Positions 39,492 to 40,526 of a DNA stretch of 64,000 bases are shown piece after piece; positions within the stretch are counted from its first letter, which is position 1; each line of letters opens with the position of its first letter. A program made the translations under genes and the position numbers. The notes under the pieces were generated by a model, which was not told where the DNA came from, ran no database searches, and was given only the letters and a program-made list of their open reading frames with translations. This DNA comes from Escherichia coli (GTDB lineage: Bacteria > Pseudomonadota > Gammaproteobacteria > Enterobacterales > Enterobacteriaceae). Location of the stretch: assembly GCF_003334405.1 (NCBI RefSeq), contig NZ_QOWM01000007.1; one strand, given 5' to 3'.

Positions 39492-40526
39492 ATGATGAAC
39501 AGCACCAATAAACTTAGTGTTATTATTCCGTTATATAATGCGGGCGATGATTTCCGCACTTGTATGGAATCTTTAATTACGCAAACCTGGACTGCTCTGG
39601 AAATCATTATTATTAACGATGGTTCAACGGATAATTCTGTTGAAATAGCAAAGCATTACGCAGAAAACTATCCGCACGTTCGTTTGTTGCATCAGGCGAA
39701 TGCTGGCGCATCGGTGGCGCGTAATCGTGGGATTGAAGTGGCAACGGGCAAATATGTCGCTTTTGTCGATGCTGACGATGAAGTCTATCCCACCATGTAC
39801 GAAACGCTGATGACCATGGCGTTAGAGGACGACCTCGACGTGGCGCAGTGCAACGCTGACTGGTGTTTTCGTGAAACGGGAGAAACCTGGCAATCCATCC
39901 CCACCGATCGCCTTCGCTCAACCGGCGTCTTAACCGGCCCGGACTGGCTGCGGATGGGGCTTTCTTCGCGCCGTTGGACTCACGTTGTCTGGATGGGGGT
40001 TTATCGCCGTGATGTTATTGTTAAAAATAACATTAAATTTATTGCCGGATTACATCATCAGGATATTGTCTGGACAACAGAATTCATGTTTAACGCGCTG
40101 CGTGCGCGATATACCGAGCAATCATTATATAAATATTATCTGCATAATACGTCAGTGAGTCGGTTGCATAGACAAGGGAATAAAAACCTTAATTATCAAC
40201 GTCACTATATTAAGATTACCCGCCTGCTGGAGAAATTAAATCGAAATTATGCCGACAAAATTATGATTTATCCGGAATTTCATCAGCAAATAACTTACGA
40301 GGCATTGCGTGTTTGCCATGCGGTGCGCAAAGAGCCGGATATTCTTACCCGCCAACGGATGATTGCCGAGATATTTACTTCCGGTATGTATAAGCGCCTG
40401 ATTACCAATGTGCGCAGCGTGAAGGTCGGTTACCAGGCGTTACTGTGGTCTTTCCGCTTATGGCAATGGCGCGACAAAACGCGGTCGCACCATCGCATTA
40501 CGCGTAGCGCCTTTAATTTGCGCTAG
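39492..40526 (+). CDS. waaH: GT2-family glycosyltransferase WaaH (YibD), 344 aa
   Basis: Translation MMNSTNKLSVIIPLYNAGDDFRTCMESLITQTW...INDGSTDNS...DADD, a GT2 fold; recognised as K-12 YibD/WaaH. Confidence 0.9.
   Translation: MMNSTNKLSVIIPLYNAGDDFRTCMESLITQTWTALEIIIINDGSTDNSVEIAKHYAENYPHVRLLHQANAGASVARNRGIEVATGKYVAFVDADDEVYPTMYETLMTMALEDDLDVAQCNADWCFRETGETWQSIPTDRLRSTGVLTGPDWLRMGLSSRRWTHVVWMGVYRRDVIVKNNIKFIAGLHHQDIVWTTEFMFNALRARYTEQSLYKYYLHNTSVSRLHRQGNKNLNYQRHYIKITRLLEKLNRNYADKIMIYPEFHQQITYEALRVCHAVRKEPDILTRQRMIAEIFTSGMYKRLITNVRSVKVGYQALLWSFRLWQWRDKTRSHHRITRSAFNLR

Follow-up and report, generated by a model that had tools for sequence, protein, structure and literature searches.

The convergent waaH/yibQ and ligB/yicG overlaps of Escherichia coli: ordinary tail-to-tail junctions with candidate 3'-end signals inside the partner genes

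When two genes face each other and share their last coding nucleotides, it has to be asked where their transcripts end and whether the transcription of one gene disturbs the other. The question is raised twice in a 64 kb stretch of the E. coli chromosome, extending from xanP through to an RHS element and referred to here as the window. An earlier note on this DNA described a 14-bp overlap between waaH and yibQ and a 4-bp overlap between ligB and yicG, and both were confirmed at these coordinates in the sequence and in the RefSeq annotation. The 14-bp coding overlap TTAATTTGCGCTAG (40513..40526) is common to the 3' ends of waaH on the + strand and yibQ on the - strand. The waaH gene (yibD; 39492-40526, +, stop TAG at 40524-40526) encodes the 344-aa UDP-glucuronate:LPS(HepIII) glycosyltransferase. 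The yibQ gene (sddA; 40513-41472, -), the last gene of the envC-yibQ operon, encodes a divergent polysaccharide deacetylase of 319 aa, and its stop TAA is the reverse complement of TTA at 40513-40515. The shorter coding overlap, TTAG at 10993..10996, is common to the 3' ends of ligB (+) and yicG (-). The ligB gene (9314-10996, +, stop TAG at 10994-10996) encodes the 560-aa NAD-dependent DNA ligase B, and yicG (10993-11610, -) encodes a 205-aa inner membrane protein of the trimeric intracellular cation channel family / PF03458, its stop TAA being the reverse complement of 10993-10995.

Positions 14001-39000 of the window (25 kb) are 100% identical to strain 65COLEC, whose RefSeq gene coordinates agree with the open reading frames of the window at both loci. 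The same ends are annotated in RefSeq for MG1655 (yibQ 3788101-3789060 and waaH 3789047-3790081; yicG 3818874-3819491 and ligB 3819488-3821170) and, for both pairs, in divergent E. coli of the B2, O157 and other lineages, in which the -14 overlap of waaH and yibQ is retained. Both pairs have the properties of convergent overlaps, namely opposite strands, facing 3' ends and shared coding nucleotides that include the stops. Both frames of each pair are real genes, with orthologues across the Enterobacteriaceae, a published activity for YibQ/SddA and detected expression of waaH. The overlapped codons specify the last residues of both the waaH and the yibQ products. Since YibQ/SddA remains active without its C-terminal region past residue 238, which is disordered (bioRxiv 10.1101/2025.02.18.638797), the dual coding constraint at this junction is light.

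Such junctions form a well-described class. A total of 58 convergent overlaps was counted in E. coli (Lillo & Krakauer 2007, PMC2174442), the modal 4-nt forms being CTAA, TTAA, CTAG and TTAG, in which two stop codons are partly complementary. The TTAG of ligB/yicG fits this class of stop/stop tetramers; the 14-bp waaH/yibQ overlap falls outside the 4-nt subclass and is a longer member of the same length distribution. The rho-independent terminator of a convergent overlap must fall within the coding sequence of the pair; among the 58 E. coli overlaps, such a terminator was assigned to a single gene in 19 cases and to each of the two genes in 2 (PMC2174442). The two pairs studied here resemble that class in their short overlaps, their facing 3' ends and the possibility of a terminator in the partner coding sequence (discussed for 21/58), with no substantive difference from it. 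The window contains nine convergent junctions with gaps of +165, -4, +36, +38, +53, -14, +52, +11 and +459 bp. A rough extrapolation from the gene density of the window gives about 650 convergent junctions genome-wide, of which about 9% would overlap, and the chance of at least two overlapping junctions among the nine is, on this rough basis, near 0.2. The two overlaps in the window are no excess over chance. Both are ordinary and part of the standard annotation, and the substance of the observation is already known.

The reading that is likely to be correct for both loci is that of two ordinary, evolutionarily stable tail-to-tail overlaps set by stop-codon placement, in which the 3' end of a steadily expressed gene is formed inside its weaker partner and no dedicated regulatory device is present. 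Each pair would consist of one steadily expressed gene (yicG; yibQ) and one expressed weakly or conditionally (ligB; waaH), and the transcript of the steady gene would acquire its 3' end within the coding sequence of the weaker one.

The stability of the overlaps was examined at two evolutionary distances. Within the species, searches with 70-90 nt around each junction found matching junction DNA in 5418 of 5426 complete E. coli genomes for waaH/yibQ and in 5421 of 5426 for ligB/yicG, ungapped in all sampled rows. Across species, a YibQ scan with one genome per species gave 80 Enterobacteriaceae loci, in which the stops were placed by tblastn and a waaH orthologue was accepted at an identity of at least about 60% and in convergent orientation to yibQ. 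Such an orthologue was present in 33 species, more than half of the surveyed species having none beside yibQ. The 14-bp overlap was detected in 13 of the 33, the set including Escherichia coli, E. albertii, an Escherichia sp., Salmonella diarizonae, Citrobacter amalonaticus, C. sedlakii and C. youngae, together with a Leclercia, an Enterobacter, Silvania and Cedecea colo. A 4-bp overlap was found in five species (three Kluyvera, Pseudescherichia vulneris and one metagenome-assembled genome), a gap of 0 in ten (C. freundii complex, Kluyvera ascorbata) and gaps of +6 to +14 in three. The two remaining species, both Pseudocitrobacter, had gaps of +72 and +113 with an apparent REP insert. Judged from these sequences, the conserved trait of waaH/yibQ is very tight abutment, and the exact length of the overlap drifts, as stop-codon drift predicts.

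The yicG/ligB junction behaved in a similar way. The overlap was 4 bp long in Salmonella, two Citrobacter, Kluyvera and Cedecea, 7 bp in Buttiauxella and 26 bp in Atlantibacter, and in Enterobacter ludwigii the genes were separated by a 68-bp gap containing an intergenic hairpin. In Leclercia and in an Atlantibacter-like contig an extra gene was located between yicG and ligB, and this inserted gene itself overlapped the 3' end of ligB, by 4 bp and 39 bp, respectively.

According to the earlier note, neither pair leaves room for a terminator between its genes. There is indeed no intergenic space, and therefore each transcript runs at least into the coding sequence of the partner; termination signals can, however, sit inside the partner gene, and hairpins were found 17-20 nt past the yibQ and yicG stops. 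On the yibQ side, a 13-bp stem-loop, GCGAUGGUGCGAC-CGCGUUUU-GUCGCGCCAUUGC (40463..40496, - strand, in yibQ-sense RNA), with two G-U pairs and an 8-nt loop, is positioned 17 nt past the yibQ stop and within the waaH codons W-R-D-K-T-R-S-H-H-R. Its folding energy is -22.2 kcal/mol in the yibQ-sense RNA versus -15.4 kcal/mol in the waaH-sense RNA, a difference of about 7 kcal/mol. The stem is followed by CAUAAGCGGA, which contains no U-tract, so that the U-rich run of about 7-8 nt expected directly behind the stem of an intrinsic terminator is missing. Covariation gave no support for the structure among 14 sequences, with 77.5% of cells paired versus 77.0% in shuffles; one compensatory pair was noticed in this set, and the inner conserved stem coincides with invariant WaaH codons. 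The yibQ-side hairpin is considered a candidate 3'-end protective structure.

On the yicG side, a perfect 9-bp stem-loop with seven G-C pairs, GCUGGGCAG-CCAGCCAA-CUGCCCAGC, followed by UUCUUGAUUU (10938..10973, - strand, in yicG-sense RNA), is located 20 nt past the yicG stop, within ligB, with a folding energy of -17.4 kcal/mol. The U-tract in UUCUUGAUUU is interrupted and passes the terminator scan; it is absent in Citrobacter and in a divergent E. coli ligB allele. The hairpin itself recurs with unchanged spacing to the stop in Salmonella, in Citrobacter and in that E. coli ligB allele, which is only about 81% identical, and the stem is intact there through one compensatory G-C to A-U change (six sequences compared). 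This hairpin is a candidate for either a leaky intrinsic terminator or a 3'-end protective hairpin.

Both structures have the GC-rich stem-loop of an intrinsic terminator. With -17 to -22 kcal/mol, the embedded hairpins are as stable as the single palindrome that occupies each 36-53 bp gap at the other, non-overlapping convergent junctions of the window (-16 to -25 kcal/mol). A count over the 64 kb gave only 13 perfect palindromes of at least 9 bp, which were mostly situated in, or directly next to, the short gaps where genes end, and just six hairpins of at least 13 bp with the two strands combined. The probability that such a hairpin falls in the first 60 nt or so after any given stop was estimated at roughly 1% or less. 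Generic scans for promoters and terminators, applied to the two regions, gave counts not above those of shuffles, the sole standout being the strong yicG-side hairpin. The + strand RNA past the waaH and ligB stops folded no better than shuffles (z of -0.63 and 0.01) and contained no terminator candidate, and a search of Rfam at gathering thresholds returned a JUMPstart element as its single hit in the window and nothing at the two overlaps. Upstream of waaH, a 9-bp hairpin followed by TTTTATCTGA (39261..39282, +) lies just past the tdh stop and is likely the kbl-tdh terminator.

The published DirectRNA-seq data obtained in LB with and without bicyclomycin (Adams 2021 Supp. 2, PMC7815308) contain three relevant Rho termination regions. 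The first is on the yibQ strand, antisense to waaH (40189..40189, -; MG1655 3789384 (+); Rho score 5.5, p 1.8e-15), and the second on the yicG strand, antisense to ligB (10562..10562, -; MG1655 3819922 (+); Rho score 18.3, p 2.7e-56), the window positions 40189 and 10562 being mapped by homology from MG1655. These two regions are 324 nt beyond the yibQ stop and 431 nt beyond the yicG stop, respectively. The third lies on the strand of waaH itself, about 40 nt inside the gene (39531..39531, +; MG1655 3790042 (-); Rho score 5.8, LB). The yicG-sense RNA has more C than G, the plus-strand GC skew being +0.15 to +0.2 at 10525-10974, and downstream of yibQ the C-richness is milder, with a plus-strand skew of +0.06 to +0.13 at 40225-40449. 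The bicyclomycin readthrough downstream of both yicG and yibQ speaks against Rho-independent termination at either locus, and because of it neither hairpin can be classed as a plain intrinsic terminator. Owing to the strong bicyclomycin effect, with the Rho score of 18.3, the yicG-side hairpin is at best a leaky terminator.

A search for Term-seq signals near both overlaps, done by coordinate prefix, returned only Rho termination regions, and no curated Term-seq 3' ends were listed in Adams 2021 Supp. 1-3 (PMC7815308) at the MG1655 sites predicted from the hairpins (~3789110; 3819536-45). This could be explained by low expression, or by hairpins that do not define 3' ends. The antisense transcript overlap suggested in the earlier note holds at least in the directions from yibQ into waaH and from yicG into ligB, as indicated by the published Rho regions and by the listing of yicG-ligB as an excludon. 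On the waaH strand in LB, termination does occur before the overlap is reached, in the Rho region about 40 nt into the gene, an observation that is inapplicable to the induced, translated mRNA.

Taken with the published data, the sequence shows a common layout at the 3' end of the steady gene, in which a stable stem-loop 17-20 nt past the stop is followed by C-rich RNA and by bicyclomycin-sensitive (Rho-dependent) termination about 300-430 nt further. The stem-loops may act as exonuclease-resistant 3' ends, and the one of yicG may in addition terminate some transcripts as a leaky intrinsic terminator. The 3' untranslated tails of the yibQ and yicG mRNAs lie antisense to the final few hundred nucleotides of waaH and ligB, and the waaH and ligB transcripts that continue past their own stops would presumably be brought to an end within yibQ and yicG, either by Rho or by collision. 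A similar arrangement is described by the model of Dar & Sorek 2018 (PMC6061677), in which the 3' end of a Rho-dependent mRNA is set by a stable stem-loop that lacks a U-tract, rut sites follow closely behind it, and PNPase and RNase II shorten the transcript as far as the stem-loop. The shared features are a stem-loop soon after the stop without a full U-tract, C-rich RNA and bicyclomycin-sensitive termination a few hundred nucleotides on. The present loci differ from that model (PMC6061677) in that the stem-loop and the rut-like region are inside the coding sequence of another gene and not in an intergenic 3' UTR, and in that no steady-state 3' end was mapped at the hairpins in Adams 2021 Supp. 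1-3 (PMC7815308). The bidirectional or collision-driven terminators (Ju et al. 2019; bioRxiv 10.1101/2022.10.23.513370) are also comparable, with convergent overlapping 3' ends and a stem-loop that aids termination. However, members of that class were described as Rho-independent, located between genes and dependent on good expression of both, whereas here Rho dependence has been published and expression looks very asymmetric.

Among the competing explanations, the one that survives best, although it is itself rather doubtful, holds that the overlaps are incidental, that termination depends on Rho only and that the embedded hairpins have no role at the RNA level, being palindromes that arose by chance or as a consequence of coding constraint. 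The missing Term-seq ends at the hairpins and the strong bicyclomycin-dependent readthrough, seen on both strands (PMC7815308), are what it would lead one to expect, as is the yibQ-side hairpin, with its lack of covariation and its inner stem within invariant WaaH codons. It accounts less well for the rarity of hairpins of this size in the window, where most other perfect palindromes are located at or beside short gaps at gene ends, and for the placement of both hairpins 17-20 nt past a stop and on the appropriate strand. The 7 kcal/mol by which the yibQ-side hairpin is stabler on the yibQ-sense strand, and the compensatory pair that preserves the yicG-side hairpin in three genera and in a ligB allele with about 19% divergence, are further points against it.

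An unlikely alternative to the ordinary overlaps with embedded 3'-end signals is a regulatory excludon, in which convergent transcription would lead to RNA polymerase collision or to double-stranded RNA cut by RNase III, so that waaH induction lowers envC-yibQ and yicG represses ligB. The excludon concept comes from Sesto et al. 2013. The transcripts of each pair must overlap, as this explanation demands, and the Rho termination regions antisense to waaH and ligB (PMC7815308) are in agreement with it. The yicG-ligB pair is included in the list of 165 convergent excludons of E. coli MG1655 (ExcludonFinder, PMC12288877 Table 1), being called in at least 50% of 58 MG1655 RNA-seq data sets, and the same list includes mtlR-yibT, which is within the window, and waaL-yibX. 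The waaH-yibQ pair is not among the 165, and the criterion of that excludome is overlap of coverage only, not mutually exclusive expression (PMC12288877). The pairs studied here resemble convergent excludons as opposite-strand neighbours whose transcripts overlap by the published data, with coverage overlap listed for yicG-ligB; mutually exclusive expression and RNase III processing at the overlap, which the concept includes, would be the points of difference. From the evolutionary side, the conserved abutment of waaH and yibQ within 14 bp in 31 of the 33 species speaks for such a device, but the length of the overlap varies (-14, -4, 0, +6 to +14) among related genera, as under neutral stop-codon drift, and more than half of the sampled species have no waaH beside yibQ at all.

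In the portion of the p19 capture data drawn on here (PMC7373196), the 5' part of yibQ yielded an RNase III-type duplex (window 41285-41307), which fits the excludon; this duplex is, however, about 760 nt away from the overlap and has few antisense reads (1746 sense versus 122 antisense). A further duplex captured in that portion of the data is in the 5' part of ligB (window 9584-9607), again away from the overlap.

On the question of INTERFERENCE, one data set was found to bear, the PhoB RNA-seq of Fitzgerald et al. (PMC10294691), of which the values for waaH and envC were used. In low phosphate, the waaH values listed there were 13872 and 11547 in the wild type versus 3032 and 2925 in the phoB deletion strain (log2 +2.1, 4.3-fold), and the envC values were 2088 and 2432 versus 2848 and 3194 (log2 -0.4, listed p 0.19). 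Since envC and yibQ form one operon (bioRxiv 10.1101/2025.02.18.638797), a decrease in envC at high waaH is the direction predicted by the excludon. The change is small and, by the listed p value, not significant; its direction fits interference, and its size and significance do not establish it. The description of waaH as phosphate-starvation-induced in the earlier note is in agreement with the PhoB-dependent 4.3-fold difference, but no PhoB binding upstream of waaH was detected by Fitzgerald et al. (PMC10294691), and the Pho-box consensus had no match within three mismatches anywhere in the window. The possible transcriptional interference between the overlapping genes, proposed in the same note, found no confirmation: waaH-yibQ is absent from the excludome, and envC is shifted by only log2 -0.4 (p 0.19) with waaH 4.3-fold higher. 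The effect of transcription of either gene on its partner is probably small.

A still less probable extension of the excludon makes waaH/yibQ a conditional one. The waaH transcripts formed under phosphate starvation, being terminator-less, would run antisense through yibQ towards envC and lower the septal peptidoglycan factors EnvC and SddA; glucuronylation of the LPS core would in this way be coupled to the separation of daughter cells, and the 14-bp overlap, present in Escherichia, Salmonella, Citrobacter, Cedecea and other genera, would be kept by selection. Finally, an annotation or sequencing artefact, in which one stop per pair is wrong and no true overlap exists, was rejected as practically inconceivable, as no supporting point was found for it, the stops follow from reading frames fixed by homology, the same RefSeq ends are present in every E. 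coli genome examined, with the junctions matching in nearly all of the complete genomes as given above, and the same overlaps recur in other genera that use different stop codons.

The two junctions are thus best regarded as ordinary overlaps with the 3' end of the steady gene probably formed inside its partner. Their overall importance is small, as both overlaps are annotated and a list of overlapping transcription units that includes yicG-ligB has already been published. The mildly useful point is that the steady gene seems to have its 3'-end signals, a stem-loop together with a Rho-dependent region, encoded within the coding sequence of its weaker partner, and the last codons of ligB and waaH would therefore be under a dual constraint. 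This is relevant when waaH or ligB is deleted or recoded, as a clean deletion would remove the 3' untranslated region of yibQ or yicG.

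The 3' end of ligB (+ strand) shares 4 bp (10993-10996) with the convergent yicG gene (- strand) in the window. In a Leclercia locus (L094), a sulfatase gene was inserted between yicG and ligB (3241-4893), and in an Atlantibacter-like contig (L104) the same place was occupied by a gene encoding an acyltransferase/SGNH protein (3426-5393). These inserted genes also shared bases with the 3' end of ligB, 4 bp in Leclercia and 39 bp in the Atlantibacter-like contig; therefore, the ligB C-terminus overlaps whichever convergent neighbour is present. A divergent ligB allele was found in E. 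coli B25FEP, in which the ligB and yicG region (L090, 310-2609) was homologous to window positions 9314-11610. The DNA identity of this allele to the window was only about 81%, with the adjoining yicG being almost identical, and dinD was missing from this strain. Such an arrangement suggests that a recombination boundary lies at or close to the 4-bp overlap in this strain.

The second convergent overlap, of 14 bp (40513-40526), joins waaH (+ strand) and yibQ (- strand). The distribution of waaH among the Enterobacteriaceae species sampled was patchy and the gene was decayed in some strains (loci L004, L007 and L010), IS1 insertions being one form of this decay. It was frameshifted in an O157 strain and carried a 3' deletion in ETEC1748. 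In Escherichia sp. MOD1-EC7003, just the 3' part of the gene survived, and the 14-bp overlap with yibQ was retained. The G+C content of waaH was low, 0.33–0.39, at its start (39400-39700) and in the 40000-40300 segment and about 0.52 at the 3' end. Pseudocitrobacter was the only sampled lineage with yibQ and waaH clearly apart, the spacer of 72–113 bp (L057, 3934-4046; L079, 3883-3954) containing a REP-like palindrome (GCCGGATAAGGCGTAGCCGCATCCGGC).

Among other gene pairs of the window, the convergent yibT (+ strand) and mtlR (- strand) genes were separated by a gap of only 11 bp (53402-53414), and this pair is listed in the published E. coli excludome (PMC12288877). The dut and coaBC genes, both on the - strand, overlapped by 23 bp (16536-16558), which exceeded the 1–8 bp usual for co-directional overlaps elsewhere in the window (rfaQ/rfaG, 4 bp; rfaG/rfaP, 8 bp; lldD/lldR, 4 bp). 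Positions ~59790-64000 held the gene for an RHS element core protein, followed by degraded sequence that contained an Imm57 immunity gene with a frameshift, an RHS fragment interrupted by an internal stop, and yibG. The sole Rfam match at the gathering level in the window was a JUMPstart RNA element (RF01707, 53 bits) at 22268-22306 on the + strand, about 50 nt upstream of rfaQ/waaQ; this element is the ops-containing leader already known from the LPS core operon.

Bicyclomycin data obtained in LB place a Rho termination region (Rho score of 5.8) at window position 39531 on the + strand, about 40 nt inside waaH (PMC7815308). The location of this region, 3' of the tdh hairpin (39261-39282), suggests that Rho halts kbl-tdh readthrough while waaH is uninduced.
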